64,000 nucleotides of DNA. Origin: Minisyncoccota bacterium (lineage in GTDB: Bacteria > Patescibacteriota > Minisyncoccia > Phycocordibacterales > UBA9973). The translations under genes were made by a program, and so were the position numbers. Positions 1,540 through 18,900 of the stretch are shown piece after piece. The stretch lies in the NCBI GenBank assembly GCA_041666225.1, contig JBAYHJ010000001.1:1881-65880 (forward strand), read 5' to 3'. Under the pieces are notes generated by a model. That model ran no database searches, had not been told where the DNA came from, and was given only the letters and a program-made list of their open reading frames with translations. Numbering within the stretch: position 1 is the stretch's first letter; every line of letters begins with the position of its first letter.

Positions 1540-1785
1540 TTATGCTATTACTTTAAAATGCTTATCTTTTGAAATAGGTTTTGTTTCTTCTATTTCGACA
1601 ACATCCCCTATCTTTTTAATATTCTCTTCATCATGTGCCTTGTATTTCTTTGTTTTCTTTATACGTTTACCATACTTTTTGTGTTCAACGAAGCGAGTAA
1701 CCTTAACAACAATAGTTTTATCCATTTTGTCTGAAGTAACTACTCCTTTTAAAATTTTATTTGTTTTTTTGATTTTTGTTTCCAT
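1540..1785 (-). CDS. rpsQ: 30S ribosomal protein S17
   Basis: 81 aa; S17 OB-fold pattern ([17 protein letters not shown]...YKAHDEEN). Confidence 0.85.
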
Positions 1786-1795
1786 AATGATTAGT

Positions 1796-1872
1796 TAATC
1801 AAGTTATAAAGTTTTTAAAGTTGAAAGTAATTTCTTCTTTATAACTTTATGAACTTTTTACTTTATAACTTC
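1796..1872. repeat. MITE-like ~75-bp element copy 1 with terminal inverted repeats AGTTATAAAG / CTTTATAACT; occupies the rplP-rpsQ spacer where rpmC (L29) normally lies
   Basis: near-identical copies at 3438..3511 and 10861..10949, all in same orientation. Confidence 0.7.
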
Positions 1873-1873
1873 G

Positions 1874-2290
1874 TTATCTAGCAACTACGCGAGTAGTAAC
1901 TGGTAATTTTGTTCCTGCTTTACGAAGAGCTTCTTTGGCTGTCGCTTCAGGAACACCATCAACTTCAAATATTATTCGGCCTGGGCGAACATCTAGACAG
2001 TATCCTTGTGGATCTCCTTTACCTTTTCCCATTCCTACTTCAGCTGGCTTTGCTGTAAAAGGTCGGTCAGGAAAAATTCTAATCCACATTCTACCAGTCT
2101 TTCCAAGTGTTCTTGAAGTAACCTTACGTGCTGATTCTATCTGATTTGCGCGGACACGTCCACCACTTGTGGCTTTGAGGCCATATGATCCAAAAGCCAC
2201 TGTAATACCTCGAGTATCAGGAGTAACCTTAGTCATATCAGTACGACCTGTTTGCCATTTTCTAAATTTTACTTTCTTTGGTGTTAACAT
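1874..2290 (-). CDS. rplP: 50S ribosomal protein L16
   Basis: 138 aa MLTPKKVKFRKWQTGR... canonical L16. Confidence 0.9.
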   Translation of the reverse strand: MLTPKKVKFRKWQTGRTDMTKVTPDTRGITVAFGSYGLKATSGGRVRANQIESARKVTSRTLGKTGRMWIRIFPDRPFTAKPAEVGMGKGKGDPQGYCLDVRPGRIIFEVDGVPEATAKEALRKAGTKLPVTTRVVAR

Positions 2291-2298
2291 AAAATATT

Positions 2299-2991
2299 TT
2301 AATTACTTTTATCATTTCTACTTGTTGAAGTAGCAGTAGGAGCAGAAAAGACTTCTCCACGATATATCCAAACTTTAATACCAATATCTCCATAACTCAT
2401 ATGAGCCTTTTCACGAGCAAAATCAACATCAGCGCGGAATGTTTGAAGTGGAATTGAACCACGTTTGATTTGTTCACTTCGAGCAATTTCGGCTCCACCC
2501 AAACGGCCTCCCAAGTAAATACGCGCTCCTTTTACTCCTCGAGCTGACATTACTTTTTCAATAGCTTGTTTGATAACACGACGATATGGTAGACGTTTTT
2601 CAAGACCTTCGGCAATAGAGCAAGCCACAATAGCTGCATCAGCATCTGGATTTGTAACTTCAAGAATATCAAATTTAAAATCTTCAGGAATTGCAATACC
2701 TTTTCGATTTAGGGTGTTTACCATCTCAGTCTTTAGTTTACTAACACCTTCACCTGAACGGCCAATAATCATACCTGGACGAGAAGTATAAACCATTATT
2801 CGTGTAGCTTTTACACTTCTTTCAATTTCAATACGAGAAATATAAAAACCTCGTAGTTTCTTTGTTAAAAATTCACGAATAACTACATCACTTTGTAAAA
2901 GAGTTTTGTATTTTTTATCAGCAAACCAGCGTGATTTCCAATCGCGGAGGGTTACTAGTCTATGAGCATATGGGTGAACTACTTTTGACAT
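2299..2991 (-). CDS. rpsC: 30S ribosomal protein S3
   Basis: 230 aa, KH + S3 C-terminal domain (GRLGGAEIARSE). Confidence 0.9.
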   Translation of the reverse strand: MSKVVHPYAHRLVTLRDWKSRWFADKKYKTLLQSDVVIREFLTKKLRGFYISRIEIERSVKATRIMVYTSRPGMIIGRSGEGVSKLKTEMVNTLNRKGIAIPEDFKFDILEVTNPDADAAIVACSIAEGLEKRLPYRRVIKQAIEKVMSARGVKGARIYLGGRLGGAEIARSEQIKRGSIPLQTFRADVDFAREKAHMSYGDIGIKVWIYRGEVFSAPTATSTSRNDKSN

Positions 2992-2997
2992 AAATAA

Positions 2998-3429
2998 TTA
3001 AGCTTTTGTTTCTTTAGTTTTTTCCGACTTTTTAACTTTTGATTTAATTGCTTTTTTTTCTACTTTTTCAGCCTTTTTAACAGTTTTTACTTTTTTAGCT
3101 TCAACTCCTTTTTCTATAAGAGTAAGCATGACATGACTTGTACGCTTATTTATACGAGATGCCGATCCACGAGCACGAGGCATACTACGCTTTAAAACGA
3201 TACCCTTATTTACTGTTACATTTTCAACATATAGGCCTTCCACTGCAATACCAGCTTGTTTTGCGTTTGCAATAGCTGAAGCGAGAAGTGTCTGGACTGG
3301 GCCAGAGGCTCTCTTTGGTAATGTATCAAGAATTAGAATTGCATCAGCAACCCTTTTGCTTTTGATTAGTTCCGCTACAAGGCGAACCTTGCGGGGGGAC
3401 TGTCTGTAGTTTTTAAGAAATGCTTTCAT
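2998..3429 (-). CDS. rplV: 50S ribosomal protein L22 with Lys-rich C-terminal extension
   Basis: 143 aa; L22 core MKAFLKNYRQSPRKVRLVAELIK. Confidence 0.85.
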   Translation of the reverse strand: MKAFLKNYRQSPRKVRLVAELIKSKRVADAILILDTLPKRASGPVQTLLASAIANAKQAGIAVEGLYVENVTVNKGIVLKRSMPRARGSASRINKRTSHVMLTLIEKGVEAKKVKTVKKAEKVEKKAIKSKVKKSEKTKETKA

Positions 3430-3437
3430 GATTTAGT

Positions 3438-3511
3438 TTATCAAGTTGTAAAGTTTTTAAAGTTGAAAGTAAATTCTTCTTTATAACTTTATGAACTTTC
3501 TACTTTATAAC
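3438..3511. repeat. MITE-like element copy 2 (rpsS-rplV spacer)
   Basis: tatcaagttgtaaagtttttaaagttgaaagtaaattcttctttataactttatgaactttctactttataactt, ~90% identical to 1796..1872. Confidence 0.7.
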
Positions 3512-3856
3512 TTACTTCTTCTTGGAATCAACTGCGGCCTTGGCTGATTTTGATGCGGTAATTTCGGCTTCTTTCTTCTTCATTTCTAATTCTTTCTGCA
3601 TCTTACCTCCGTGTCGGACAAATTTTCGTGTAAGTGAGAATTCTCCAAGTCTGTGTCCTACCATATCTTCACTTACTAGTACTTCTACGTGGGTCTTTCC
3701 GTTGTGAACACCAAAGACAAATCCAACCATTTCTGGGGAGATTTGACAGGCTCTTGCCCAAGTCTTAATCATCCCTGTTTCAATAGGTTTTTTACCGGCA
3801 ATCTTTTTTAATAGCCTTTCATCAACGTATGGACCTTTTTTAAGTGATCGTGTCAT
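3512..3856 (-). CDS. rpsS: 30S ribosomal protein S19 with Lys-rich C-terminal tail
   Basis: 114 aa; S19 core [15 protein letters not shown]. Confidence 0.85.
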
Positions 3857-3931
3857 ATTGTATAAATATAAATAAGCTCTTTTGAGCTCGTGGAATTCAT
3901 GTTAACAAATATAAGATAGAGAGTCAAGTGT

Positions 3932-4342
3932 TTACAAAAACACTACTATTTTCGGCAAAAAGATTATTATCCCTATAACACCAGCCACTATTACAGATAT
4001 TAGAACTGCTCCTGCAGCTACGTCTTTTGTGTCTTTTGCATAGGGGTGAAAAGTAGGAGAAGTTAAGTCAATATCAATCTCAAAAGCGGTATTTAGTGCT
4101 TCAGCAATAATGACTAGACCTATCGAGAAAATTATCATTACCCATTCAATATTTGATATTTTCAAAATAAAACCTAAATAAATAGCCAATATCGCAAAAA
4201 ATATATGAGCCCAGGAGTTGTGAGTAGACCGAATAAAAATACCCAATCCTCGCCATGCATTTCTTGTGCTTTTCAATCTAGCCACAATTGAAAATCTTTT
4301 CTTCTCTGATATTTTTTTATCCATTTTCCTATTATACATCAA
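3932..4342 (-). CDS. dgkA: diacylglycerol/undecaprenol kinase (DgkA family) membrane protein
   Basis: 136 aa, 3 TM helices, DgkA motifs RNAWRGL...HNSWAH and AEALNTAFEIDIDL. Confidence 0.7.
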   Translation of the reverse strand: MMYNRKMDKKISEKKRFSIVARLKSTRNAWRGLGIFIRSTHNSWAHIFFAILAIYLGFILKISNIEWVMIIFSIGLVIIAEALNTAFEIDIDLTSPTFHPYAKDTKDVAAGAVLISVIVAGVIGIIIFLPKIVVFL

Positions 4343-4384
4343 AAAAGCCCCAACCGTAGTCGGGGTATTGATATTTTAATGGGA

Positions 4385-5131
4385 TTAAGTTATTCTTTTT
4401 TTTCTAGCTGGTGTAAGACGATTAACTGTCCACACGATTAAACTTGCTATAATAATTCCAGCCGATCCGAAATAAAAAAAGAAAATGGAGGAAGGGATTA
4501 TTAAATAAAAGAACACAAACAACAAAGCAATAATCATTCCCCCTGATATTCGCCGGGCAATTTTCTCTATGTCGTCAAAAGAAAGAATTAAACAAGCATT
4601 TACAATTGGAATAGCAAGTATTATCCAACAAAATGTCACCAATGTTATATTTTCTTTTGGCGATCCAAAATATAACCACACTAATTCTATTACAGACAAT
4701 ACAATTAACATCGCTGCCAAAACAAGACTCCGCGTTGAATTGTTTTTAACAACAAACCCCCAATAAAGAAATATAATAAACAACACTACCCCAGCCATTG
4801 ATGAATCTCCCATTGAAGAAGAAATATCCTTAGCGAACTGAGTACTTACTGGTACATTTTTGTGAAGTTTTTCATTGTATAACAGCCCGGCGCCTTGTAC
4901 AGAATCTATCTTTAAATTGCCTTTATAATGAATAGATTCTTTGTGGAATAAAATGGTAAGCCCATTTTTGTAAGCTAGATCATTCTGTTCCGGAGTTGCG
5001 TCTTTGTAGGCAACTGAATCTGGAGTAATCGATTTATAACTCGATCCCTCCGATGAGGAAGACGTATTGTTTTTGAAGTATAAAAATACTCCCAAAGACA
5101 ATATCAGGGTAATTAAAAAAAGATTTTTCAT
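4385..5131 (-). CDS. membrane protein, signal peptide/N-terminal anchor plus C-terminal multi-TM domain
   Basis: 248 aa, hydrophobic N-terminus and 4-5 predicted TM segments. Confidence 0.55.
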   Translation of the reverse strand: MKNLFLITLILSLGVFLYFKNNTSSSSEGSSYKSITPDSVAYKDATPEQNDLAYKNGLTILFHKESIHYKGNLKIDSVQGAGLLYNEKLHKNVPVSTQFAKDISSSMGDSSMAGVVLFIIFLYWGFVVKNNSTRSLVLAAMLIVLSVIELVWLYFGSPKENITLVTFCWIILAIPIVNACLILSFDDIEKIARRISGGMIIALLFVFFYLIIPSSIFFFYFGSAGIIIASLIVWTVNRLTPARKKRIT

Positions 5132-5436
5132 GGTTTATTTTTTTAAAATGTTTGCCTTTAGATTACTCCTCATAAAACTTTTGTCAACCACATGATTTTG
5201 ATATATAATGAATTTAAATATTCTTTAAAAATTGTTTTTCTGTCAGACCGCACAAGGTTGAATCAGGTAAAAACTCTAACCAGAGCTTCGTGTCTTTGAC
5301 ACTTAAAGCTATCCTACTAACTGAATCCAAATTTTTTGGTTTCATAACACTTATCAAAGTATTGTCTTAATACTTTTGCTTAAACTAAAAACTTGTATAA
5401 GTATGAATGAAAAACTAAAAAGACAAAAAAGGGAAA

Positions 5437-5781
5437 TTGCACGGCTTCAAAAATAGAGCAGGTTGGAACGATGAACATCATATTAAAACACCTTGTTCAA
5501 GAGGTGGTGAAACAATCGATTCAAATTTACTTTTAATTGATGTCTACCGTCACGATGCGTGGCATTTACTTTTTAGTAATCAAACATTGCGCGAAATAAT
5601 TGCACACCTAAAAAACTACTGTAGCACTAAAGATTTTTTGCTTTCAGTTAACAATTACTATAAGCACCCTGCTTTTCGTTTACTATTTGGGAGTAAACCA
5701 CTAAACGAAATAATAGCATTACTACTAAGAATACAACATGCAAAAGATTCGCAACGAATTAGAATAAAACTAGCTGCATAA
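5437..5781 (+). CDS. hypothetical protein with internal duplicated motif (LLFSNQTLREIIAHL / LLFGSKPLNEIIALL); TTG start
   Basis: ORF-track entry begins at TTG; plausible -35/-10 (ttgtcaa..N17..tatataat) at ~5176-5210; hairpin terminator 5787-5816. Confidence 0.3.
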   Translation: MHGFKNRAGWNDEHHIKTPCSRGGETIDSNLLLIDVYRHDAWHLLFSNQTLREIIAHLKNYCSTKDFLLSVNNYYKHPAFRLLFGSKPLNEIIALLLRIQHAKDSQRIRIKLAA

Positions 5782-5819
5782 AATTAAAAGTCGTTCTGGA
5801 AACAGAACGACTTTTTAGT

Positions 5820-6548
5820 TTACCGAAGCCTTGCTTCGGTAGGTTCTATTTCTTCTATCTCTAACCATTCAAATATTTCTTTCTTGAAAATATTTGGGTC
5901 CTCAAAATAATCAGGGAATTTCTCTTTATTTAAAATCAAATTTTCTGGTCTTTTAGATAAAAGATAATCATTATAACTACTCCATTTGTATGAATTAAGA
6001 AAATTAATAGCTTCTGTTTTATTATTTATCCCTACTTCCTTCCAGTCAGATTGAATCAATTTAATAGGATTTAAGTGTATATATGAAAATAAATATTTTG
6101 CTTGTATTTCATCTTCAATATGAATAGATTTAAATTTACCTTCAAATAAAGACCCTGTTCTGTTATGTTTTTTATTAAAATATTTTGCATATGCGGTACA
6201 GAGTTTTCCCATAAATTCAGTTATATTATTCCTCTCTTCATCTTTCCCATTAGACCTACCGAAGCCTTGCTTCGGTAAAGCTATTAAATACAAGTGGAAA
6301 TGGTTGGGCATCAGTACCCATGCACCAATAGCTACTAACTGGTCCCCCCTTTCAAAATCCCAAGCACTTATTTTGGGTTGAATGATATCATCTTTAAAAT
6401 TAATTCCTTTGGTTGAATTACAAAGAAATAAAAGCTTGATAAAGCGATCTCTATCTTCATCATCAAGAAAGATTATTTGTTTATTGTTTCCTCTATTGTA
6501 AATATGATAATATTCACCATCCACAAGTGGAACTTTTCTTAAAGACAT
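5820..6548 (-). CDS. REP-associated tyrosine transposase (RAYT, IS200/IS605 TnpA-like HuH-Y1), copy 1
   Basis: 242 aa; N-terminal YHIYNRGNNKQIIF, HuH motif LMPNHFHLYL, C-terminal WSSY...Y motif; flanked and interrupted by REP1 palindromes. Confidence 0.8.
   Translation of the reverse strand: MSLRKVPLVDGEYYHIYNRGNNKQIIFLDDEDRDRFIKLLFLCNSTKGINFKDDIIQPKISAWDFERGDQLVAIGAWVLMPNHFHLYLIALPKQGFGRSNGKDEERNNITEFMGKLCTAYAKYFNKKHNRTGSLFEGKFKSIHIEDEIQAKYLFSYIHLNPIKLIQSDWKEVGINNKTEAINFLNSYKWSSYNDYLLSKRPENLILNKEKFPDYFEDPNIFKKEIFEWLEIEEIEPTEARLR
5821..5841. repeat. REP1 palindrome taccgaagccttgcttcggta (copy a)
   Basis: perfect 8-bp arms; copies at 6256..6276, 6573..6593, 24612..24632. Confidence 0.8.
6256..6276. 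repeat. REP1 palindrome (copy b), located in-frame inside the RAYT-1 ORF (translates LPKQGFGRS)
   Basis: sequence identity to other REP1 copies. Confidence 0.8.
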
Positions 6549-6572
6549 ATATTACATTATACTACAAAGGTT

Positions 6573-6593
6573 TACCGAAGCAAGGCTTCGGTG
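6573..6593. repeat. REP1 palindrome (copy c, loop inverted: taccgaagcaaggcttcggtg)
   Basis: sequence. Confidence 0.75.
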
Positions 6594-6641
6594 GATATCT
6601 CGTTTCCCATGATTTTTTATTAAGTTAATTTTAATACCTTA

Positions 6642-6671
6642 ATAATACCCCCCCCCGAAAAATGAAGTCAG
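6642..6671 (-). promoter_or_regulatory. putative sigma70-like promoter with 9-nt poly-G in spacer (minus strand: ctgact-N18 incl. G9-tattat) upstream of RAYT-1
   Basis: C9 tract at 6648..6656 on plus strand; same architecture at 7748..7777, 23865..23895, 25464..25494. Confidence 0.45.
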
Positions 6672-6677
6672 CACATC

Positions 6678-6703
6678 AAAAAATACCCTTGCGGGTATTT
6701 TTT
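6678..6703. terminator. hairpin terminator aaaaaataccc-ttgc-gggtatttttt (duplicate of the rplB terminator at 7825..7851)
   Basis: sequence. Confidence 0.65.
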
Positions 6704-6760
6704 GATGATAGATTTTATATTTTTTTCTAAAATTATTTTGCTTTTCCAACTTTTCGGCGG

Positions 6761-6893
6761 GAGACAATCCACATGTTTGAGTATTTCTTTGGTGTTCTTG
6801 TCTTCTGTCCTTTTCCTGTTGGTTTACCCCACATACTTTTGGCTCGGCGTAGTCCGCGTCCTTGGCGTCCTTCACCTCCGCCGTGGAAACTCG
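6761..6893 (-). pseudogene. duplicated 3' fragment of rplB (encodes ...GGGEGRQGRGLRRAKSMWGKPTGKGQKTRTPKKYSNMWIVSRRK), no start codon
   Basis: near-identical to 7984..8116 of the intact rplB; the overlapping ORF-track entry 6639..6944 is in a different frame and judged spurious. Confidence 0.75.
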
Positions 6894-7016
6894 CAATAAC
6901 GGTTCATTAGAATTCCTTAATATATTATGAGATAAAACAAGCAAAAACGGTTATTTTAGAAAGATTACAAACAAAAAGCAACCACCTTAATCACAGTTAC
7001 ACTAAGATTATATTAA

Positions 7017-7745
7017 TTAATATTTATGTTTATTTTTTTTATTGGCAAGATCACCACGTAAATTTTCTATTAAATAAGTTGATTTGCCTGATTTTTCATT
7101 ATTTTTTTCGTATTTTATTGCTAATTTATCAAACATCTCTTCATTTTCGTCATCTACTGCTTTATAAAGTGCCCTGGAAATATATTTGTCTTCTAAGTGT
7201 AAATGAGCATTTTCAAGAGACCATGTTCTTTCAATTAAATTTTTACCAACAGCTTCATCGAGAATATTTTTTACTTTCCTTTCATCAAATTTTATACCAA
7301 GTTCAATTGCCCTTTCTGCCCAGCAATATAAATTAAACGGTGTTTTATAATCATGTCCCTCCTTTTCTTTTTTATAGAGTTCAATAAAATCATTAATATA
7401 TCCCAATATTTCAATAGGATCATTTACTCTATATTCTTTTGATTCTTTTATTACTTCTAGTAAAAAAGCGTCAACGTCCTCACTTTTTAACTGACCTACT
7501 TTTTCTTGAGTTCCATCTTTAATAATCTTACTTTTTTCATTAAATTCTCTATTTTCTATCTCTGCCTCATCTCGAACATTTTCAGATTCTTGAGCAAGAT
7601 TATTAAGCTCAAAATAAGCCTCCCTTGCATCTTTCCCCCCCGCCTCAATTTTTTCTTGAGTAGCTATTGTTCTTTTATTTAAATCCTCTGCATTAGTAAA
7701 ATTTTCCATATAAATATTCAAAAATATTATTAATAATATACACAT
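7017..7745 (-). CDS. hypothetical acidic/Lys-rich protein (likely true start MENFTNAEDL at ~7711)
   Basis: 242-aa ORF; driven by poly-G promoter 7748..7777; contains an internal G7 tract at ~7626-7632. Confidence 0.55.
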   Translation of the reverse strand: MCILLIIFLNIYMENFTNAEDLNKRTIATQEKIEAGGKDAREAYFELNNLAQESENVRDEAEIENREFNEKSKIIKDGTQEKVGQLKSEDVDAFLLEVIKESKEYRVNDPIEILGYINDFIELYKKEKEGHDYKTPFNLYCWAERAIELGIKFDERKVKNILDEAVGKNLIERTWSLENAHLHLEDKYISRALYKAVDDENEEMFDKLAIKYEKNNEKSGKSTYLIENLRGDLANKKNKHKY

Positions 7746-7747
7746 CT

Positions 7748-7777
7748 ATAGTACCCCCCCCAGACATACATTGTCAA
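7748..7777 (-). promoter_or_regulatory. putative poly-G spacer promoter (minus strand ttgaca-N18 incl. G8-tactat)
   Basis: C8 tract 7754..7761 on plus strand. Confidence 0.45.
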
Positions 7778-7824
7778 TAAAGATAAAAATATAAAAAACT
7801 ATCAAACCAACTTTTTTAAAAAAC

Positions 7825-7851
7825 AAAAAATACCCTTTCGGGTATTTTTTG
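7825..7851. terminator. hairpin terminator downstream of rplB (aaaaaataccc-tttc-gggtatttttt)
   Basis: sequence. Confidence 0.65.
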
Positions 7852-7956
7852 TTGATAGAGTTTTTTATTTTTAAGGCTATTTTGCTTTTCCCTGCCCGCC
7901 CTCGTGTACTCGGGAGCAGGCGGGCAACTTTTCGTTCTATTTGATATGACTAAATA

Positions 7957-8799
7957 TTATTTAGCCTTACCTACCTTCCTTCGAGAGACAATCCACATGT
8001 TTGAGTATTTCTTTGGTGTTCTTGTCTTCTGTCCTTTTCCTGTTGGTTTACCCCACATACTTTTGGCTCGGCGTAGTCCGCGTCCTTGGCGTCCTTCACC
8101 TCCACCGTGTGGATGGTCAACTGGGTTCATGGCTGTACCACGAACTGTTGGGCGAATTCCTTTCCATCGTGAACGTCCTGCTTTTCCAAAGTTTTGAAGT
8201 TTGTATTCACTGTTTGAAACTTCACCAATACATGCCCAGGCATTTTCTGAAACTTTTCGAACTTCAGTTGATGGCATTTTGATATTTGTATACCCAAGGT
8301 CATTGGCAACAACTTGTCCAAATGTACCTGCGGAACGAGCCAATTTTGCTCCATTACCAGCTTTAATCTCTACGTTATACACAAATGTTCCAACTGGAAT
8401 TATTTTAAGAGGTAAACGATTTCCAACTGCAAGTGGAGCTGTTTCGGAAACTATAAATTTATCTCCAACTTTCATTGATTTAGGTACAACCACGTATCTT
8501 TTTTCTCCGTCAGCGTAGCAAGCTAAACTGATGAAGGCATTACGATTTGGATCATATTCTATTGAAGTTATTTTGGCAGGAATATCGTGCTTGTTGTACA
8601 TGAAATCGATTTCACGATAAAGACGCTTATGTCCACCCCCTTTATGGCGAGTAGTGATACGTCCCTGATTATTTCTTCCAACAGATCTCTTAAAACCTTT
8701 TGTTAAAGATTTTTCTGGAGTACTTGTCGTCAACACATTACGGTATGTTACCGTAGTTTGGTGACGCTTTGATGGAGTTGTAGGTCTATATGTTTTCAT
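7957..8799 (-). CDS. rplB: 50S ribosomal protein L2
   Basis: 280 aa; L2 signature (HPHGGGEGR, RNNQGRITTRHKGGGHKR). Confidence 0.92.
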   Translation of the reverse strand: MKTYRPTTPSKRHQTTVTYRNVLTTSTPEKSLTKGFKRSVGRNNQGRITTRHKGGGHKRLYREIDFMYNKHDIPAKITSIEYDPNRNAFISLACYADGEKRYVVVPKSMKVGDKFIVSETAPLAVGNRLPLKIIPVGTFVYNVEIKAGNGAKLARSAGTFGQVVANDLGYTNIKMPSTEVRKVSENAWACIGEVSNSEYKLQNFGKAGRSRWKGIRPTVRGTAMNPVDHPHGGGEGRQGRGLRRAKSMWGKPTGKGQKTRTPKKYSNMWIVSRRKVGKAK

Positions 8800-8801
8800 A
8801 A

Positions 8802-9128
8802 TTATGCGAATGTTATCTTATCTCCTTTTTTCAAATGTACGACCGCTTTTTTTCCACCTTGTTTTACACTTACAATTCCACGACGTGTAACTGTCTTTTT
8901 TGCAATTGTCGTAACTGAAATACGCTCTGGTGTTACTCCGTAAACAAATTTAATGGCTTTTTTAAGTTCATTTTTGTTTGCAGTTTGAGCAACATTAAAA
9001 GTATAAACACCGCGTTCAGCATCAATTGCAGATTTCTCAGTAATACGAGGACCTTTTATAAGTATATGTGTCTTTTCTTTACTTTCTACAACTTCTTTTG
9101 TATTCTTTTTTGTTTTTGTAGTTGCCAT
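8802..9128 (-). CDS. rplW: 50S ribosomal protein L23
   Basis: 108 aa; operon position, L23-like core. Confidence 0.8.
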   Translation of the reverse strand: MATTKTKKNTKEVVESKEKTHILIKGPRITEKSAIDAERGVYTFNVAQTANKNELKKAIKFVYGVTPERISVTTIAKKTVTRRGIVSVKQGGKKAVVHLKKGDKITFA

Positions 9129-9129
9129 A

Positions 9130-9885
9130 TTATTTCTTTTCTATTTTACCACCCAAAAAAGCAATACTTTCTTTTGGCTGTGTAATAATAATATATCTGA
9201 AGGCAAGTAAATCAACAGGATTTATATTTCTGATTTCATCAATCTCTGCTGTTTTAATATTTGCAAAACTTTTCTTTAATGAATCACTTTTTGCTGGTAC
9301 AGTTATGTATAGGTTCGTCTTCTTTCCTCCTGTAATTTTCTCAAAACCTTTTACACCACTTAAATCCTTCACAATAGCGATAGCATCTTTTGTCTTGATA
9401 TTTTTAAGAGCAAACTCTTCCACAAAAAGGATTTGACCTTTCCGCAACTTTTCAGATAGTACTGTAAAGAGTGCCTTGATTTTCATTTTCTTATTTATTT
9501 TTTGTTCGTAAGATTTTTCATTACGAGGTCCGTGAGTTACTCCTCCACCTTTCCAAATAGGAGAGCGGCTTGACCCATGACGGGCTCGTCCTGTTCCTTT
9601 TTGTTTCCAAGGTTTTCTGCCTCCTCCACGAACATCTGAGCGATCCTTAGTATGAGCAACTGGGGTACGAGCATTTGCTTGCATCGCAGTTACGACTTGG
9701 TGAACTAAGTCACCATTCCAAGGTAAACCAAATATTGTTTCTGGTAGTTCAAGTTTTCCAACAGATTTACCTTTTTGATTGTAAACTTCTGTTTCCATAA
9801 CAGCATCACTAACAACTTTAGTTTTCTTTACCGCGGTAGTTTTATTACTTTTTGTAGTTTCTTTTGTAGTCATAAAATTAGCCAA
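9130..9885 (-). CDS. rplD: 50S ribosomal protein L4 (with N-terminal extension)
   Basis: 251 aa; L4 core (GGGRKPWKQKGTGRARHGS). Confidence 0.85.
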   Translation of the reverse strand: MANFMTTKETTKSNKTTAVKKTKVVSDAVMETEVYNQKGKSVGKLELPETIFGLPWNGDLVHQVVTAMQANARTPVAHTKDRSDVRGGGRKPWKQKGTGRARHGSSRSPIWKGGGVTHGPRNEKSYEQKINKKMKIKALFTVLSEKLRKGQILFVEEFALKNIKTKDAIAIVKDLSGVKGFEKITGGKKTNLYITVPAKSDSLKKSFANIKTAEIDEIRNINPVDLLAFRYIIITQPKESIAFLGGKIEKK

Positions 9886-10498
9886 TAATTTCTACGAGCG
9901 TTCCGCGGCGTCCTGGAATCGCACCTTTAATAAGTAATTGATTGTTTTCTGTATCAACTCCGATAATTTCTAGATTTTTGATTGTGATACGATCACCTCC
10001 CATACGACCTCCCATGCGCATTCCCTTTGGAACTTTATTTCGAAGACCTCCTCCGATAGAACCTGGTTCACGTTCTGAGTGTTTTTGTCCGTGTGATCTT
10101 GGTCCTCCGTGAAATCCATGGCGTTTAACAACACCCTGGAATCCTTTACTCTTTGAAATTCCAGAAACAATAACAACGTCACCTTTTGCGAAAGCGCTGA
10201 CAGTTATTTTGTCTCCTTCTTTTATATCTTCAATATCACGAAACTCTCGTAAATGCTTAAATGCACCACCTTCCTTTTCTGTCTGAGATGCTAAAACATG
10301 TCCAAGATGTGCCTTTGTAGCACGACTTGTTTTTTGTTCTTCGAACGCTACTTGTACTGCTGTATAACCATCTACGTCTGGACTCTTAACTTGAGTCACA
10401 ACAAGAGGGCCAGCGGAAATTACCGTTGCTGGAACTGCGGTGCCATCATCTTGAAAGCACTGCATCATATGCTGTTTTTTTCCTAAAATAAATTTCAT
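9878..10498 (-). CDS. rplC: 50S ribosomal protein L3
   Basis: 206 aa; L3 motifs (FKGDVVIVSGISKSKGFQGVVKRHGFHGGP). Confidence 0.9.
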   Translation of the reverse strand: MKFILGKKQHMMQCFQDDGTAVPATVISAGPLVVTQVKSPDVDGYTAVQVAFEEQKTSRATKAHLGHVLASQTEKEGGAFKHLREFRDIEDIKEGDKITVSAFAKGDVVIVSGISKSKGFQGVVKRHGFHGGPRSHGQKHSEREPGSIGGGLRNKVPKGMRMGGRMGGDRITIKNLEIIGVDTENNQLLIKGAIPGRRGTLVEIIG

Positions 10499-10502
10499 AT
10501 AA

Positions 10503-10856
10503 TTACATCATTTTCACATCTATATCAACACCAGATGGTAGTGATAGGTTTGTGAGTGCCTCAATAGTCTTCGCATTTGGATTGAGAATATCGATGACAC
10601 GCTTATGGATTCTTATTTCAAACTGTTCTCGAGCATTTTTAAATACAAACGATGCTCTGTTGACTGTGTATTTTTTAATTTCGGTAGGAAGTGGAATTGG
10701 TCCTACAATCTTTGCATCATAACGCAGAGCAGTATCAATAATCTGCTTGACTGAAGTGTCAAGAATTTTATTCTCATAGGCTCGTACGCGGATACGAAGT
10801 TGTACAACTACATCTTCTTTTCCCTTTTTTGGTTTTAGAACTTTCTTTGTTGTCAT
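10503..10856 (-). CDS. rpsJ: 30S ribosomal protein S10
   Basis: 117 aa; S10 core (IRIRVRAYENKILD...GPIPLPT). Confidence 0.85.
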   Translation of the reverse strand: MTTKKVLKPKKGKEDVVVQLRIRVRAYENKILDTSVKQIIDTALRYDAKIVGPIPLPTEIKKYTVNRASFVFKNAREQFEIRIHKRVIDILNPNAKTIEALTNLSLPSGVDIDVKMM

Positions 10857-10860
10857 GGTA

Positions 10861-10949
10861 CTTAGTTATAAAGTTTGTAAAGTTGAAAGTTTGTAAAGCA
10901 AATGCATTTTTAATCTACTTTATAACTTTATGAACTTTATGAACTTTCT
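10861..10949. repeat. MITE-like element copy 3 (tuf-rpsJ spacer), with extra tatgaactt repeat
   Basis: ttagttataaagtttgtaaagttgaaagt...ctactttataactttatgaactttatgaactttctact. Confidence 0.65.
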
Positions 10950-10951
10950 AC

Positions 10952-12154
10952 TTACTTAATGATCTTAGTAACAACTCCTGCTCCGACAGTTTTACCTCCT
11001 TCACGGATAGCAAAGTGCATAGTTTCTTCTAGGGCTACAGGTGTTACTAGTTTAACCGAGAGTTTAACTGTATCTCCTGGCATAACCATTTCTACACCGC
11101 TCGGAAGTGTTGATTCTCCTGTTACGTCTGTTGTACGGATATAGAATTGAGGTTTGTATCCAGTAAAGAATGGAGTGTGACGTCCTCCTTCTTCTTTTTT
11201 CAAAATGTAAACTTCACATTCGAATTCAGAGTGAGGAGTAACTGTTCCTGGTTTAACAAGAACTTGACCACGAGTAACGTCTTCTTTTTTAATTCCACGA
11301 ATAAGAATACCGGCGTTGTCTCCTGCCATACCTTGTTTTAGGTTTTTATTAAACATTTCAATACCAGTAACTGTTGTCTTTGCAGTATCTTTAATACCAA
11401 CAATTTCAACATCTTCACCGACGTTGATAACTCCACGTTCGATTTTACCAGTCACAACTGTTCCACGTCCTTCGATTGAGAAAATATCTTCAATAGGCAT
11501 TAGGAATGGTTTTGTAACATCACGTTCTGGAACTGGAATATAAGTATCAAGAGCATTTACAAGATCCATGATCTTTACAGCCCAAGCATCTGTATTGTCA
11601 GCTGATTCAAGAGCTTTCAAAGCTGAACCACGAATAACTGGAGCGTTTGCACCATCAAAACCTTGTTTTGTAAGAAGTTCACGAACTTCTTCTTCGACTA
11701 GATCAAGCATGTCTGGATCATCAACCATGTCGCATTTATTTAGAAATACGATTATTTTTGGAACGTTAACTTGTTTAGCAAGGAGGATATGCTCACGAGT
11801 TTGTGGCATAACTCCGTCTGTCGCAGCGACAACGATAACTGCACCGTCCATTTGAGCGGCACCTGTAATCATGTTTTTAATATAGTCAGCGTGTCCTGGC
11901 GCATCAATGTGTGCGTAGTGACGTGCTGGTGTCCAATATTCATTGTGAGAAAGGGCAATCGTGATACCACGAGCTTTTTCTTCTGGGGCTGAGTCAATTT
12001 GATCAACTCCTTTTATTTTAGCACCATATTCACCACCTTGGCGTGCTAAAACTTGTAAAATAGCCGCAGTCAATGTAGTTTTGCCGTGATCGACGTGACC
12101 AATGGTACCTACATTAACGTGAGGCTTGTCTCTTTTAAATTCTTCTGCTGCCAT
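10952..12154 (-). CDS. tuf: elongation factor Tu
   Basis: 400 aa; [23 protein letters not shown]-motifs. Confidence 0.97.
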
Positions 12155-12436
12155 ATATTTTTATTGGTTGATAATTTCCAATTTAATTCTTAATTACTAA
12201 TTCGTAATTCTTAATTAATTAAAAGCTACCAACATAAATTATTAATAAATGTACCTCGCCTGTGGCAAGATAACGCAAAAATTGCGATTGACCTACATAG
12301 TAGCAGATTTAAAAATAAATGCAAATAAAGTTAGAACTTCTACTGACCTCCAAAAATAAACCATATAAAATATAGCCATTCTGGCTGACTCCGAACTTGA
12401 GACAATGTTCAAATGAGGATAACTGAGGTAAAAGAA

Positions 12437-12473: not shown

Positions 12474-13277
12474 TTATAATTCAAGGACAAGTAATCCTTT
12501 CTTAATCAAAAGTTCAATAACATCTTTCCTCCAGTTATATTTATATATAAATTCGGGAATAGTCATAAGCTCTCTTTCAAGAGCATCTTCTTTGGGAATA
12601 AATTCTGCCAATTTACACTCTTTCGAAGCATAAAACAACATAATTTTTTCTTTACCCTCAAATTGAACTGTTGCAAATGGAATAGCCTCACCAATTGTAA
12701 TTCCTGCTTCTTCGTCTGCTTCTCTTCTAAGAGAATCCATTAAATTTAAATCAATAGATCCAACATGTCCACCAGGGATATCCCAACCCCGTTCATTCCT
12801 TGCTGCTACTATTTTATTATCAACAAAACCAATAAGAAATACAGCGCTTACATTTTTTATATCTGGCAATAATTCCGTATTAATAAAACGAATTTTAATA
12901 TTCTCAATTGAAAACTCATTTACTTCTTTTATCACAGCTTCATTACCATTTGAAATCATATGTACGATGATACCATTTTTAAGACCAGAAGTTAATTCTT
13001 CATTTATATGAATGACGAATTCAATTCTATCATCCTCATAAACTGAGTATTGCAAATGATCATGTGAGCGTTTATTCGGATGCGTAATGATAAGACCAAT
13101 CTTCTTATTCATTTTTAGTGACAAGGAACTTAGAAATGTAAATAATGATTCCCCCAATTCATGTTTAACAACAAAAATACGAATATACTCATTCATGTAT
13201 CCTTCTTGAAAGTCTAAAGTGTATTTTTCTTTCACATTATATTTTTCAATTTGTAAAGTCAATAGATTAGTAAGCAC
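12474..13277 (-). CDS. hypothetical protein with C-terminal Nudix-like hydrolase box
   Basis: 267 aa; ...LRREADEEAGI matches REUxEExGU of Nudix box; N-terminal domain unknown. Confidence 0.5.
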   Translation of the reverse strand: MLTNLLTLQIEKYNVKEKYTLDFQEGYMNEYIRIFVVKHELGESLFTFLSSLSLKMNKKIGLIITHPNKRSHDHLQYSVYEDDRIEFVIHINEELTSGLKNGIIVHMISNGNEAVIKEVNEFSIENIKIRFINTELLPDIKNVSAVFLIGFVDNKIVAARNERGWDIPGGHVGSIDLNLMDSLRREADEEAGITIGEAIPFATVQFEGKEKIMLFYASKECKLAEFIPKEDALERELMTIPEFIYKYNWRKDVIELLIKKGLLVLEL

Positions 13278-13348: not shown

Positions 13349-16300
13349 TTAATTCTCCTTTATAACTGGAATTATAACTTTAACCGTTGCAACACTGGAG
13401 GGCGAACTTGTCCCATTTGTACAAGTCAAAGTATAAGTCTTCGTCGAAGTTGGAGTTACTTTCACTCCTGGATTCATATTCTGTGCAGCTCCCTGGGTAT
13501 CAAAATCAGGACTAGAACACGAAGTTGCATTGTCTGCTGACCAAGTAAGAGTAGAGGATCGGCCCTTCAATACTTTATCTGGTGTTGCAATAAATGTTAT
13601 CACAATAGGTTGAATTTTAGCTTCTGAACAACTTGCATTAGTTCCTCCTCCACTTCCTTCACATGTCCAAAGATGAAAAGCTGGACTATCTGGATTATCT
13701 ACCATAGTTCCTTTACTACAGAGATTGTGAACCACTCCACAAATTCCATCTACTGCTATTGGCTCACAAGAATTACCATCCCAACTTGTTCCTATTGTAC
13801 ATGTTGCTTGTACGATAAGACCTTTTCCATTTGGAGATTCTGCTGTTGGAACAAGTGATTTAGCATTATTGTAAAGATAAAATATTTTAGCAGAAGGAGA
13901 TGTGAAAGTATAAGTCTTAGTCCCTGAATAATCATTACCAATAGTTGGGGTACTTAGATTTATAGGGCTCATATCATTAGCAGTTATCTGAGAAGGAATT
14001 GCTTCGGTATTGTCTATCGTCCAAGCTAGAGTTGTATTACAACTATTTCCTCCAGATAGAATCGTACAATTAGGGCCAGTAAGAGTTCCCCGAAGTGCAT
14101 CCGCTGCAATTACTTTCACTTGAGACCAAGAACCACTACAGTTATTACTTTCATTTGATTCAGCAATAGCTCCAGTATCTCCCGCCGAATTCTTATCTGC
14201 ACAAGCTCGTATATAATAATTTCCTACAACAGGGAATGTGATATTCACCGAAGAGATAGCTGACGCCCCAATCCCAAGAGCTGGCATTGCTCCATCTGGA
14301 TAATCTTTTAAATCTATCGGCCCAGTTTGAAGCACTGGATCCGCAAAACCTGTCGCCGTCTGAAATAGATTTTCAAACTTCAAAATAGTGGAGGCAGTTC
14401 CTTGGTTCGTAATAGTTGACTTATAAACTGTTGATACTCCCGCAACAGCACTTGCTGGACTTGGATTTGAGGCCACAAGATCAGCAGAAATAACAGCCGA
14501 GGCCACGCAAACACTCTCATCCCATTTCGATGTCGCCGTATCACAATCCGCCATTGCTACGGCCTGATCCAAGAGAGTAGAATTATATAAATAGAAATCT
14601 CTACTTCCATAATCGACAGACCATTTCTTTGTCCCATTATTGGCTGTCGCTACTACGACGTTCTTTGGAGTTGTAACTTGCGAGGTAACTCCAGCATTGG
14701 GATTTGTGGTACTCCATGTCAAATCTGTCATACAGCTACTTGCCCCGATTGGAATTACACAATTAGTTGCTGTCAATGTCCCCTTCGCTTGTTTTGCACA
14801 AGTTGTTCCATTCCAGACATCACCTGTAAATGCCGAACACATTGCTCTCGCATTCTTACTAGAAAGCACTACATTATTGTGACTTAGATCAAATTTCCTT
14901 ACTCCATAAGCCATTGAATAAGAAAATGGTAGTGAACTATTGTTACCTGTTGCTACTATAATATTTGTTGGAGTTATAATTTTTGAAGTGACTCCAGCCT
15001 TAGGATTCGAAGTACTCCAAGTCAATTTTGTAGCACAAGTACCTGCTCCTGTCGGAATTATACAATTTGTAACATTTAGTACCCCTGTAGGATTTGTTGT
15101 CGCTTCACATTTTTTACTTAAAGTATTATAAACTGTTCCAGATGTACAATCCGCCGTAGCAGTAACTGAACCAAGCGGAGCATTGGCATGATAAAGGAAA
15201 AATTCACGGGTACCAAAAGCGACAGGGTAAGGCACTCCCGTATTATTTGTATTCCCTGTTCCAACTGTTATATTCGTCGGTGTTGTAACCGCAGAAATAA
15301 ACGAGGGCTTTGGATTGTATGTCTCCCATTTTACATTTGTATTACAACTTCCTGCCCCAAGGGCAATCAAGCAATCAGGAGCTGTTATCACCCCCGTTGG
15401 AGGAATAGGAGCCGTAGTGGCTTCGCATTTATTGGTTACGATACTCCACTCAGAATCACTGGCACAAACTGTATTGATGGTTATTGTATCAAGTTCATTG
15501 GGGGCAGTTTTACGAATATTCATAGTATTTCCTTCATCGTCAACTGTATTTTCAGCTTTATATATTGCTCCGTATGAGGAATGATAAATATTTGTAATGC
15601 CAGAGCCAGTGTTGGTGGGGCTAAAAACAGCGAGACCATCCCTTGTAATTTTTGTATAAAGATTTGAAGGATAAACCGATGAATAAGGACTCGTCGTACC
15701 CCAGTTAAGCGTTACCCCAGGGCAACTACTTCCACCTATGGGGATAGTACAACTCATTGTTGTTGTGCCTGTACAATTAGTGCAAGCCAAATCCCCCGAC
15801 TGAGCACTTACGGGAACAATGACACTTTTCAACGACGGTGAAGATGAGTTCGTACAATCAAGCTGAAAATTATTTGTTGCAAGTTGTAGATTTGAAACTG
15901 TTTTATTTTGAATAAACGTACTATCGTAAAAAGTTCCATAATTATTCGTCACTGGATTTGAGTCACTAGTGTTTATTAAATCACAACTTCCAGTAATATT
16001 TTTAACATTGACTTTTAAATACGCCGTTCCAATAGGATCTGGAACTCCTTTTTTAACCACATTTTTAATTTGTGTTTGATCCAAATCAAGAGTAGCCACA
16101 GGTTCATCTGGTGGTGGAACTGCTGGTTGAATAACAATACTTACATCTTTAATAACTGAAATATTTCCAGGATCAACTCCTTCAGCGAAAATTTTAGGAA
16201 TGATATTTGAAAAGAAATTCTTTACTTTTTCAATGATAGCTACTTTAGGAATATCATTTTTAGTATTGCTATAGATAGCATCAGCAGGTGAGAAGGCCAT

Positions 16301-17335
16301 ATTCCCGCTTGCCCCTGGTCCATTACAATCACCCGAGGCAGGGTTATTAAACGCACCACCTACTCCACAAGTTATCGAATAATGTGTGGTAATATTTGAA
16401 CTCCCTGTATTAGTTAACGCTCCTGTGTAATATCGTCCCGAAGTTGGGCAACTAAGACCCCCGCTATCCGTAACACCTCCGACAGAGTCAATCTTTACGA
16501 TATTACAAGATTTCGAACCTAACGCACTATAGTTAATAAACGAACCATCGTTAGAATAAACAGGCGATAAGGTATTGGCTGTAATTGACGGGGGAACTAC
16601 ATTAACTATTACTTCTGCCGTCACAACTTGTCCACCAGCACCATTATTACATTCGTAAGAAAAGACTGTTGATTGCAATAAGCCTGTAGTAGTAATGGAA
16701 CCAGAAGTAGGGTCGGGTAGTGGTGCAGAAGCATCAAGCCACCAACAAGATATCCCTGTAGTTGGATAATTCTGCCAATGAATTACTGAAGACCCACCAT
16801 AATATACAGAACTCGGAGTGGCCCACATATTCAAAACAATAGTTGCTGGGTTATATACCGAAAAGTCATAAGTGCGATTTTCTATTTTATCACCAAAAGC
16901 TTTCGCTTCAATCTTTATACGATAATTCCCCAATAGTGGAGCTAAATTAAAAGATGTATTACCAGATACTGTGTCGTGAGTAGTAAAAACAAGATTTGAA
17001 GGACTAATTATATACTGAGAAGGTACCACGATGGTTTCGGCTCCACCAGTACCAACAGAATACAGAGTGGCTTTCATAGACACCGTAGTATTACCAAGAC
17101 TAAATATTCTATTATCAGTTTCCATCTGCCCGGCAATCATAAGAGCCCCAGTGGAAGGGTAATTCGTAATATCTGGAATAGTTTCTTTAACACTGACAAA
17201 CCTTATTGTTGTCCAGTTTTCAAAAATATCAAAAGTATTTTCGTAGGCAAAAGCTCTTTGGCTAAAACCTACAAAAGAAATGATTGTTACAATTAAAACT
17301 AAAACTCCGACAAAAGATTTTTTAAATAATTTCAT
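13349..17335 (-). CDS. giant secreted/cell-surface protein (1328 aa), Thr/Ser/Gly/Asn/Cys-rich with ~100-aa tandem domain repeats
   Basis: N-terminal signal peptide MKLFKKSFVGVLVLIVTIISFVGFSQRAFA; at least four repeats around the motif CxTxLTWSTxNPxAGVTSxxTTPTNxxVATxNN; repeat periodicity also visible as similar antisense ORFs at 14640-15580. Confidence 0.8.
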   Translation of the reverse strand: MKLFKKSFVGVLVLIVTIISFVGFSQRAFAYENTFDIFENWTTIRFVSVKETIPDITNYPSTGALMIAGQMETDNRIFSLGNTTVSMKATLYSVGTGGAETIVVPSQYIISPSNLVFTTHDTVSGNTSFNLAPLLGNYRIKIEAKAFGDKIENRTYDFSVYNPATIVLNMWATPSSVYYGGSSVIHWQNYPTTGISCWWLDASAPLPDPTSGSITTTGLLQSTVFSYECNNGAGGQVVTAEVIVNVVPPSITANTLSPVYSNDGSFINYSALGSKSCNIVKIDSVGGVTDSGGLSCPTSGRYYTGALTNTGSSNITTHYSITCGVGGAFNNPASGDCNGPGASGNMAFSPADAIYSNTKNDIPKVAIIEKVKNFFSNIIPKIFAEGVDPGNISVIKDVSIVIQPAVPPPDEPVATLDLDQTQIKNVVKKGVPDPIGTAYLKVNVKNITGSCDLINTSDSNPVTNNYGTFYDSTFIQNKTVSNLQLATNNFQLDCTNSSSPSLKSVIVPVSAQSGDLACTNCTGTTTMSCTIPIGGSSCPGVTLNWGTTSPYSSVYPSNLYTKITRDGLAVFSPTNTGSGITNIYHSSYGAIYKAENTVDDEGNTMNIRKTAPNELDTITINTVCASDSEWSIVTNKCEATTAPIPPTGVITAPDCLIALGAGSCNTNVKWETYNPKPSFISAVTTPTNITVGTGNTNNTGVPYPVAFGTREFFLYHANAPLGSVTATADCTSGTVYNTLSKKCEATTNPTGVLNVTNCIIPTGAGTCATKLTWSTSNPKAGVTSKIITPTNIIVATGNNSSLPFSYSMAYGVRKFDLSHNNVVLSSKNARAMCSAFTGDVWNGTTCAKQAKGTLTATNCVIPIGASSCMTDLTWSTTNPNAGVTSQVTTPKNVVVATANNGTKKWSVDYGSRDFYLYNSTLLDQAVAMADCDTATSKWDESVCVASAVISADLVASNPSPASAVAGVSTVYKSTITNQGTASTILKFENLFQTATGFADPVLQTGPIDLKDYPDGAMPALGIGASAISSVNITFPVVGNYYIRACADKNSAGDTGAIAESNESNNCSGSWSQVKVIAADALRGTLTGPNCTILSGGNSCNTTLAWTIDNTEAIPSQITANDMSPINLSTPTIGNDYSGTKTYTFTSPSAKIFYLYNNAKSLVPTAESPNGKGLIVQATCTIGTSWDGNSCEPIAVDGICGVVHNLCSKGTMVDNPDSPAFHLWTCEGSGGGTNASCSEAKIQPIVITFIATPDKVLKGRSSTLTWSADNATSCSSPDFDTQGAAQNMNPGVKVTPTSTKTYTLTCTNGTSSPSSVATVKVIIPVIKEN

Positions 17336-18896: not shown

Positions 18897-18900
18897 TTTG

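Follow-up and report, generated by a model that had tools for sequence, protein, structure and literature searches.

Intercistronic spacers in the ribosomal-protein operon of a Minisyncoccota bacterium belong to a cross-phylum family of palindromic short-unit arrays

Short repeats between bacterial genes are known in several forms. The REP/BIME and REPIN sequences of E. coli and Pseudomonas are short intergenic palindromes that are mobilised by RAYT (Y1/HUH) transposases, and the Correia elements of Neisseria and the ERIC sequences of enterobacteria are miniature inverted-repeat transposable elements (MITEs) that are co-transcribed as hairpins and can alter the processing or stability of the mRNA. 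The epsilon sequence of T7 gene 10 and the omega leader of tobacco mosaic virus (TMV) are translational enhancers that work in bacteria independently of a Shine-Dalgarno (SD) sequence. Direct repeats of the heptamer TAACTGA have been described from Beggiatoaceae, Cyanobacteria and Bacteroidetes; they sit immediately before start codons without an SD sequence, also inside ribosomal-protein operons, and neither their function nor their vehicle is known (MacGregor 2015, PMC4679880). Here we describe a palindromic element of about 85 nt in the S10 operon of a Minisyncoccota bacterium, found in a 64-kb stretch of contig JBAYHJ010000001.1 (assembly GCA_041666225.1), which is referred to below as the window. 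The results assigned three spacers in this AT-rich stretch (34% G+C) to a family of intergenic “array palindromes” that is widespread and crosses phyla. The family is apparently undescribed so far; a literature search by unit sequences and by subject returned no earlier description of it.

The first 12 kb of the window carried, on the minus strand, the genes tuf-rpsJ-rplC-rplD-rplW-rplB and, after a 4-kb insert, rpsS-rplV-rpsC-rplP-rpsQ-rplN-rplX-rplE. Pfam matches confirmed the identities of tuf, rpsJ, rpsS, rplV, rplP and rpsQ. The junctions in this operon were mostly 1-8 nt long, with three exceptions of 82-95 nt, each of which was occupied by a copy of the element:

1786..1873, minus strand: copy 1, the entire rplP-rpsQ intercistronic spacer, 88 nt
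3430..3511, minus strand: copy 2, the entire rpsS-rplV spacer, 82 nt, starting directly 3' of the rpsS stop codon (3512-3514)
10857..10951, minus strand: copy 3, the tuf-rpsJ spacer, 95 nt, a diverged member whose arms are longer and whose loop differs
1874..2290, minus strand: rplP (L16), the cistron upstream of copy 1; the next gene is rpsQ, with no rpmC between
1540..1785, minus strand: rpsQ (S17), the cistron downstream of copy 1
3512..3856, minus strand: rpsS (S19), the cistron upstream of copy 2
2998..3429, minus strand: rplV (L22), the cistron downstream of copy 2
10952..12154, minus strand: tuf (EF-Tu), the cistron upstream of copy 3
10503..10856, minus strand: rpsJ (S10), the cistron downstream of copy 3

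Copies 1 (1791-1871) and 2 (3433-3513) were 95% identical across 81 nt. All three copies had an exact 21-mer in common, CTTTATAACTTTATGAACTTT (chance expectation 0.02 matches), as well as a 27-mer when one mismatch was allowed (chance expectation 0). The original prediction, made from the sequence of the window, had proposed three related repeats at rplP-rpsQ, rpsS-rplV and tuf-rpsJ, and this sharing far above chance showed that they are real. No further AAAGTT/AACTTT arrays were found beyond the three copies within the 64-kb window, and all three fell among the approximately 12 of about 63 spacers that are flanked by tuf or ribosomal-protein genes (p ~0.007).

Read 5' to 3' on either strand, the element consisted of an arm of 8-9-nt units with an AAAGTT core, a loop, and an arm of units with an AACTTT core. 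The linkers between the cores varied and were 2-4 nt or so in length (ATA, CATA, TTTTA, GA and others), and the periods of the arrays determined with TRF were 8-9 nt. The linkers formed small internal loops, pairing being restricted to the unit cores. On the mRNA strand, the stop codon TAA upstream of copy 1 was followed by CGA, the 5' arm of AAAGTT units (plus-strand positions 1837-1872), the loop AAGAAATTA (~1828-1836), the 3' arm of AACTTT units (1801-1828), the tail GATTAACTAATCATT (1786-1800) and the ATG of rpsQ. The element began 0-3 nt past the upstream stop codon; its 3' tail, in which AACUAA is separated from the following AUG by 3-7 nt, recurred in the ribosomal-protein copies. On both strands the three copies gave long hairpins, imperfect and A/U-rich; for the mRNA strand the folding energies were -13 to -19.5 kcal/mol (z -2.0 to -3.6), in agreement with the long hairpin that had been proposed directly after the upstream stop codon. 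The 10-bp inverted-repeat pair AGTTATAAAG/CTTTATAACT was exact in copy 1 and matched at 9 of 10 positions in copy 2 (AGTTGTAAAG). The right partner of copy 3 was internal (10918-10927) with two more units after it, so the proposed “terminal inverted repeat” is strictly valid for copies 1 and 2 only; the proposed internal duplicate of the right repeat was seen in these same two copies. At 82-95 nt, the copies were short and non-coding and were bounded by inverted repeats as MITEs are, apart from the internal partner in copy 3. A small open reading frame (ORF) within the element was considered and rejected, with stops in all frames and no conserved ORF.

To place these copies, a collection of species-representative genomes was scanned with the 21-mer; the counts of loci and arrays given below are those among the matches listed. 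The exact 21-mer was found at no fewer than 120 loci adjoining unrelated genes, often at contig ends, and the unit structure was recognisable at all of them. The record labels included many classes of Patescibacteria, Bacteroidales, Ignavibacteriaceae, Chloroherpeton, Nitrospinota and “uncultured Gammaproteobacteria”; at one Bacteroidales locus that was cross-checked, the homologs of the downstream lgt gene were all labelled Bacteroidota. Altogether 164 of 174 arrays were intergenic and abutted stop and start codons, mainly between co-directional genes. Convergent spacers were array-poor (6% vs 17-18% occupied, Fisher p=0.002), which links the arrays to the starts of genes and not to their ends. 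Where two arrays were paired, the AAAGTT arm was 5' and the AACTTT arm 3' in 46 cases, and the reversed order was never seen; both orders would be thermodynamically equivalent. Intergenic palindromes of fixed relative orientation are also the mark of REP/REPIN sequences. The genes downstream of the arrays were unrelated to each other (122 Pfam families in 125 genes) and only 8 of the 174 arrays adjoined S10-spc genes, and on these grounds a specific tie between translation genes and the wider family was rejected. Long one-directional arrays were present in Bacteroidales. The 21-mer had 0 matches in 2.9 million viral contigs, which leaves a phage vehicle without support.

Loci of relatives (designated by L-numbers), among them L001, L003, L135 and L136, were retrieved via L16 alone and therefore independently of the element. 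The L16 homologs placed the organism among the Nomurabacteria/Paceibacterota of the candidate phyla radiation (CPR). Locus L003, from the same strain (99.7% identical), carried a fourth, variant copy at rpsN-rpsH in the spc operon, in addition to the two near-identical copies and the diverged one of the window; no locus other than L003 was found to continue the contig of the window past rplE. In L001, with ~90% identical coding DNA, the rpsS-rplV junction was a 9-nt spacer without the element and a 30-nt GC hairpin stood in place of the element at rplP-rpsQ, while the same ~85-nt element was found at rplX-rplE. This clade subfamily, with the loop AAGAAWTTA, was also found at rplF-rplR in L128-L131 and in the representative genome L089, and at rpsQ-rplN in L129 and L136. 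In L136, family members were located at tuf-rpsJ, rpsJ-rplC and rpsQ-rplN, with GC-rich palindromes at three other junctions. Copies of the subfamily therefore occurred across 4 or 5 different ribosomal-protein junctions in different genomes, all in the sense orientation, and a loop-spanning 24-mer of the subfamily had four matches in a metagenome collection, all at rplF-rplR and all sense. The same junctions were empty in sister genomes (1-13 nt), and further genomes with an identical L16 protein had rplP-rpsQ spacers of 10-13 nt. These results showed that the subfamily was duplicated among operon-internal S10/spc junctions in this clade and that its copies come and go between relatives. The element had been described as present only within the S10 operon, which held for the window but not for rpsN-rpsH of L003, for rplX-rplE, rplF-rplR and rpsQ-rplN of the relatives or for the scattered wider family. 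In the same way, its restriction to ribosomal-protein junctions held for the window and close relatives, but members of the wider family stood beside unrelated genes in many phyla, which the original prediction had itself named as evidence against a dedicated regulatory role.

Other palindromes were seen at comparable places. GC-rich perfect palindromes lay at rplP-rpsQ in L001, at rplD-rplW in L132, at rplN-rplX, rplX-rplE and rpsN-rpsH in L136 and at 7880-7925 of the window (examples are CCTGCCCGCGCAGGCGGG and CCATAGGCCTTGCC...GGCAAGGCCTATGG), which indicated that several unrelated hairpin families have colonised ribosomal-protein operons. Array palindromes with different vocabularies (TTGGTTT/AAACCAA and CTAGNNN types) were found at 144-215 of the window, at rplN-rplX and rpsH-rplF in L129 and at tuf-rpsJ in L133 and L132. 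The G-containing arm was again 5' and the C-containing arm 3' in these palindromes, so the design may be general and not bound to AAAGTT.

An analysis of the spacer sequences revealed that approximately 60 nt were nearly invariant among seven copies, taken from six genomes and representing four junctions. Orthologous rplF-rplR spacers had identities of 0.88-1.00, compared with 0.77-0.86 for rplF and 0.56-0.70 for its third codon positions. The similarity was not raised in the 50-nt coding windows flanking this spacer, which makes recent recombination tracts unlikely, and a recombination tract was rejected as the source of the conservation. The tuf-rpsJ elements of L001 and L136 had an identity of 0.88 with flanking coding DNA at 0.78-0.85. 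Copy 3 of the window matched the tuf-rpsJ element of L001 at 0.63 directly and at 0.78 when reverse-complemented, which suggests that the palindrome was flipped. As judged from these identities, the retained copies have been under sequence constraint.

The near-invariant core also bears on whether the copies could have arisen by replication slippage of the 8-9-nt units in place, as in microsatellites or STRR-like repeats, without any transfer between sites. Slippage would fit the unit expansions at rpsN-rpsH in L129, where (CTTTATAA)x9 and (AGTAATCA)x6 were found, the long one-directional arrays of Bacteroidales, and the (AATTAAGA) array after rplF in L003, which had at least 16 units and reached the contig end (L003:12505-12636). 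Against it stand the approximately 60 near-invariant nucleotides, including the loop, the order of the linkers and the non-repeat tail, that are shared across 4-5 junctions in several genomes and that independent slippage cannot produce, and the 46:0 polarity, which calls for a directional cause. Slippage as the origin of the element is very improbable; for the subfamily it is largely refuted, and it remains likely only for changes in unit number.

The reading we favour, whose probability we place about halfway between doubt and belief, is that the elements are a REP/MITE-like family of array palindromes that is copied between intercistronic junctions, co-transcribed, maintained under constraint and used in the initiation or coupling of translation. 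A non-autonomous, REP/MITE-like copy-and-paste process or gene conversion would spread the subfamily between junctions. Each copy would be transcribed within the polycistronic mRNA; it is presumably co-transcribed because it lies inside an operon without a promoter or terminator signature of its own. The A/U-rich and G-poor unit arrays could supply the initiation region of the downstream cistron, and the hairpin might hold the stop and start codons together, keeping the translation of the two cistrons coupled despite a spacer of 80-95 nt. In a compact genome whose genes are largely leaderless, operon-internal junctions may be among the few places that tolerate an insert; the concentration of copies in ribosomal-protein operons would follow from this. 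Once installed, the copies would be kept under purifying selection.

Several results weigh against this proposal. The antisense strands of the three window copies were more stable than the mRNA strands (-17 to -26 kcal/mol, z -3.0 to -4.9), and in a comparison of 42 hairpins the antisense strand was again the more stable for copies 2 and 3 and for most of the relatives' copies tested. Selection on the sense strand, tested by G-U asymmetry, gave a null result (21 vs 20 of 42 hairpins between co-directional genes, p=0.6). No compensatory change was found at any of the 17 consensus pairs in the seven subfamily copies, and several substitutions broke pairs. In L133, the 5' arm alone (32 nt, 100% identical) stood directly before the ATG of rplR, so the hairpin is dispensable there, and L135 had short junctions throughout and no element. 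True solo arrays adjoined start codons in either orientation. A high-copy Falkowbacteria genome carried 13 hairpins in 80 kb that all differed in loop and in the order of their units, which is not typical of MITE copies. No target-site duplication was found in the filled versus empty rplP-rpsQ, rpsS-rplV, rplF-rplR and rpsN-rpsH junctions, although the genomes compared were ~10-20% diverged and a duplication of 2-3 nt might be hidden; the element with its tail took the place of the entire short spacer. No insertion sequence (IS) or transposase with matching ends was detected on searching the 64-kb window and the loci retrieved (~1 Mb). The sole transposase-like genes there were RAYT-like, and these genes in the window, their orthologs in L137-L139 and that in L032 were flanked by other hairpins (GAAGTCSGACTTC, or ACCGAAGC...GCTTCGGT) and not by AAAGTT arrays. 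The short palindromic, MITE/REP-like form proposed originally is supported; with no target-site duplication or matching transposase found in these comparisons, membership among classical MITEs is not established. It was also considered whether the polarity arises because an AACUUU arm has to come before the AUG; this was rejected because solo arrays in short spacers occurred both ways.

If the elements brought no benefit to the host, they would be selfish or neutral MITE/REPIN-like palindromes that prefer operon-internal junctions or are tolerated only there. The presence of copies differed between close relatives, and in some genomes the copies were numerous and scattered, often at contig ends, as expected for such repeats. 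The unrelated GC-rich palindromes at other ribosomal-protein junctions in L001, L132 and L136, the lack of strand bias in folding energy, and the two RAYT-like genes of the window, whose own REP hairpins mark them as hairpin-mobilising systems in this genome, point in the same direction. Neutral decay, however, predicts otherwise than was observed for the orthologous copies, which were far better conserved than synonymous sites over long divergence; the failure to find a target-site duplication or cognate transposase also speaks against purely selfish copies, as does the use of one unit vocabulary in several phyla, something that lineage-specific MITEs rarely show. We regard this explanation as unlikely.

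The RAYT-like genes were located at 5820-6548 (minus strand) and 19025-19798 (minus strand) and matched NF047646 at E 6.6e-10 and 7.9e-11, respectively. Both contained HUH and YxxxNP motifs, and each had its own flanking REP hairpin plus one copy inside the coding region. The gene at 19025-19798 was syntenic beside nusA in L137 and L138, where the REP core was GAAGTCSGACTTC. A REP hairpin, TGTTGGAAGTCGGACTTCCAACA, at 18873-19020 was followed by a perfect 12-nt tandem array, (TTAACTTCCAAC)x8, that repeated its 3' arm, and more copies of the TGTTGGAAGTCGGACTTCCAACA hairpin lay at 19532, 19775, 58656 and 61012. The RAYT-like proteins were considered as the mobilising enzymes of the element and were rejected on the basis of a jackhmmer search over all loci and the flanks of the orthologs, since their REPs differ; no cognate RAYT flanked by the same repeat was found. 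A residual weak resemblance between the 3' arm of the REP and a unit of the element, GTTGGAAGT versus GTTGAAAGT with one base different, is a lead only.

A dedicated cis-regulatory RNA of ribosomal-protein operons would be a further alternative. The element could then bind an autoregulatory protein, act in attenuation or processive antitermination or be processed by RNase III, and selection would maintain it because it sets the stoichiometry of ribosomal proteins. All copies of the clade were found at ribosomal-protein junctions in the sense orientation, the metagenome scan, which used the sequence alone, matched only rplF-rplR, and the conservation exceeded that of coding DNA. In addition, a tuf-rpsJ palindrome was present in the window, L001, L132, L133 and L136 even where the sequences differ. 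A regulatory RNA would be expected to keep a fixed position and a structure backed by covariation, whereas the position varied by genome, sister genomes had no element, none of the 17 pairs covaried and Rfam returned no family for the elements at either gathering or permissive thresholds. A scan for promoters and terminators flagged nothing at the elements, though ordinary GC-stem terminators were found nearby. A GC-rich stem with a U-tract and an enrichment at the 3' ends of genes, which would mark a terminator or attenuator, were likewise missing, and the arrays were depleted in convergent spacers. The more stable antisense strand, the loss of the hairpin with retention of the 5' arm in L133, the apparent inversion of the tuf-rpsJ copy of the window, and the occurrence of the same vocabulary beside 122 Pfam families elsewhere (among the matches listed) also disagree with such an RNA, which we consider distinctly unlikely. 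We conclude that the elements do not represent terminators or promoters, nor do they belong to a known RNA family or encode a small ORF.

The translation context of the window gave a setting for the arrays. An analysis of the start-codon contexts revealed no SD signal, with GGAG upstream of one of 64 genes; the positions -11 to -1 were A/U-rich and G-poor, and T stood at -1 in 41 of 64. Many genes of the window had a TATAAT-like -10 box ~7 nt before the ATG, which suggests that leaderless mRNAs are widespread. Tsurumaki et al. did not detect the anti-SD motif in about half of Parcubacteria. A second type of array, AATTACGA/AATTAAGA, with an 8-nt period, was found directly upstream of rplE, rplX and tuf:

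856-899, 1119-1160 and 12155-12220, window: arrays of the second family

The AATTACGA/AATTAAGA vocabulary was also found in L128, L134, L080 and an Ignavibacteriaceae metagenome-assembled genome (L070). Elsewhere in the window, tracts of G8-G9 on the minus strand lay inside the 17-18-nt spacers of sigma70-like promoters (7748-7777, 6642-6671, 23871-23879 and 25470-25478), for example TTGACA-N18-TACTAT immediately before the ATG of the ORF at 7017-7745 and TTGACA..G9..TAGAAT upstream of the ORFs at 23401-23802 and 24799-25401. By their sequence, these promoters have the appearance of phase-variable switches of the slipped-strand type that serve leaderless genes of this CPR organism.

Two narrower proposals concern what the arrays may do. 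That the elements act as co-transcribed spacer modules for SD-independent initiation or for translational coupling of the downstream cistron is a tentative suggestion, and we hold it to be possible but doubtful. That the AAAGUU/AACUUU arrays and their sister vocabularies (AAUUACGA) are ancient cross-phylum intercistronic or 5'-leader modules of non-SD bacteria (CPR, Bacteroidota and relatives), recognised by a conserved cellular partner, is unlikely. The partner might be the ribosome itself, protein S1, one of the Nus factors or a protein that binds RNA or DNA. Recognition by such a partner would explain the cross-phylum vocabulary, the absolute polarity and the conservation above that of ribosomal-protein coding DNA, and the elements would still move between operon junctions.

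The window also bears on the absence of L29 (rpmC) that had been noted between rplP and rpsQ. The 88-nt spacer contained no L29, as stated originally, and a small L29 hidden Markov model, built from three sequences, had no match among the six-frame ORFs of the window. The gene was absent at rplP-rpsQ in the window and in L001-L007, L129 and L132-L136; where L16 was compared, it was 81-100% identical. Spacers of 1-13 nt at rplP-rpsQ, containing neither rpmC nor the element, were seen in genomes whose L16 was identical or 81-92% identical, so the element did not displace rpmC, and the idea that it replaced the gene was rejected. Lineage-specific loss of L29 in CPR has already been published, and L29 is among the ribosomal proteins that are often lost elsewhere. 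The absence of rpmC from the rplP-rpsQ position is clade-wide, probably reflects a loss of the gene, and is independent of the element.

Other features of the neighbourhood were observed. The 4-kb insert (3857-7956) split the S10 operon between rplB and rpsS and contained dagK, a RAYT-like gene and hypothetical ORFs, as well as a duplicate of the 3' end of rplB (6729-6885 vs 7953-8109, 93% identical) with a duplicated terminator. The presence of dagK at this position was common to L001 and L132-L135, and the gene was absent there in L136. A 1328-residue ORF at 13349-17335 (minus strand) lay ~1.2 kb upstream of tuf, with a 267-residue ORF at 12474-13277 in between. The 1328-residue ORF had no NCBIfam match and was not rpoB or rpoC, despite its suggestive position; a relative had a 1387-residue protein with weak CARDB/TSP1 matches near the same nusA/RAYT neighbourhood.

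It is an open question by what means bacteria without SD pairing, such as many CPR and the Bacteroidota, translate their internal cistrons and maintain operon stoichiometry. A spacer module that can move, and that is better conserved than the ribosomal-protein genes around it, offers a concrete, testable candidate for such a signal. Should the elements prove selfish, the ribosomal-protein operons of CPR, usually treated as rigid phylogenetic markers, are still hot spots of palindromic inserts, and the arrays break assemblies, as in L003, whose contig ends inside one. In that case too, the strict polarity and the cross-phylum vocabulary need a mechanistic explanation. The known clade-wide loss of L29 can now be separated from the repeat. 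Three properties remain unexplained: the strict arm polarity, the unit vocabulary shared across phyla and the conservation above the coding level.

Compared with the known systems, the element resembles REP/REPIN sequences in being an intergenic palindrome, often in operons, with a fixed polarity and a presence that varies between relatives, and the window has genes for two RAYT-like proteins as well (NF047646, E ~1e-10). It differs in its AT-rich arms built from degenerate 8-9-nt sub-repeats, where a REP is a GC-rich palindrome of 20-35 nt, in its low copy number in this genome and in the other hairpins that flank the RAYT genes here. It shares with Correia and ERIC elements a length of ~80-150 nt, terminal inverted repeats, a location within operons and long mRNA hairpins; in contrast to them, no target-site duplication or parent IS was found, the copies of high-copy genomes were not near-identical and the vocabulary was cross-phylum. 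The autoregulatory leaders of ribosomal-protein operons (the S10 leader, to which L4 binds, and the spc operon, to which S8 binds) are placed comparably to the tuf-rpsJ copies and to the copy immediately before rplE in L001, but the element had no Rfam match, fixed position, covariation or rRNA mimicry. The sequences of T7 gene 10 epsilon (UUAACUUUA) and of the TMV omega leader (repeats of ACAAUUAC) have been given in PMC12567214. The 3'-arm units (AACUUUA...) resemble T7 epsilon and the window arrays AAUUACGA, with AAUUAC units, resemble the TMV omega 8-mers, as a resemblance only; both kinds of array lie directly upstream of start codons in a non-SD genome, and, unlike epsilon and omega, solo arrays occur here in both orientations. 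The TAACTGA and cyanobacterial STRR heptamer arrays are likewise tandem arrays of short units (7-9 nt) before non-SD start codons and at ribosomal-protein junctions, with a cross-phylum distribution. They are one-directional and perfect with a 7-nt period, whereas the units here are 8-9 nt long with a 6-nt core and variable linkers and usually form inverted pairs, and here there is evidence of conservation at orthologous sites. Taken together, the element is a variant of known intergenic repeats, combining features of the REP/MITE-like palindromes with those of the TAACTGA/STRR-like arrays.

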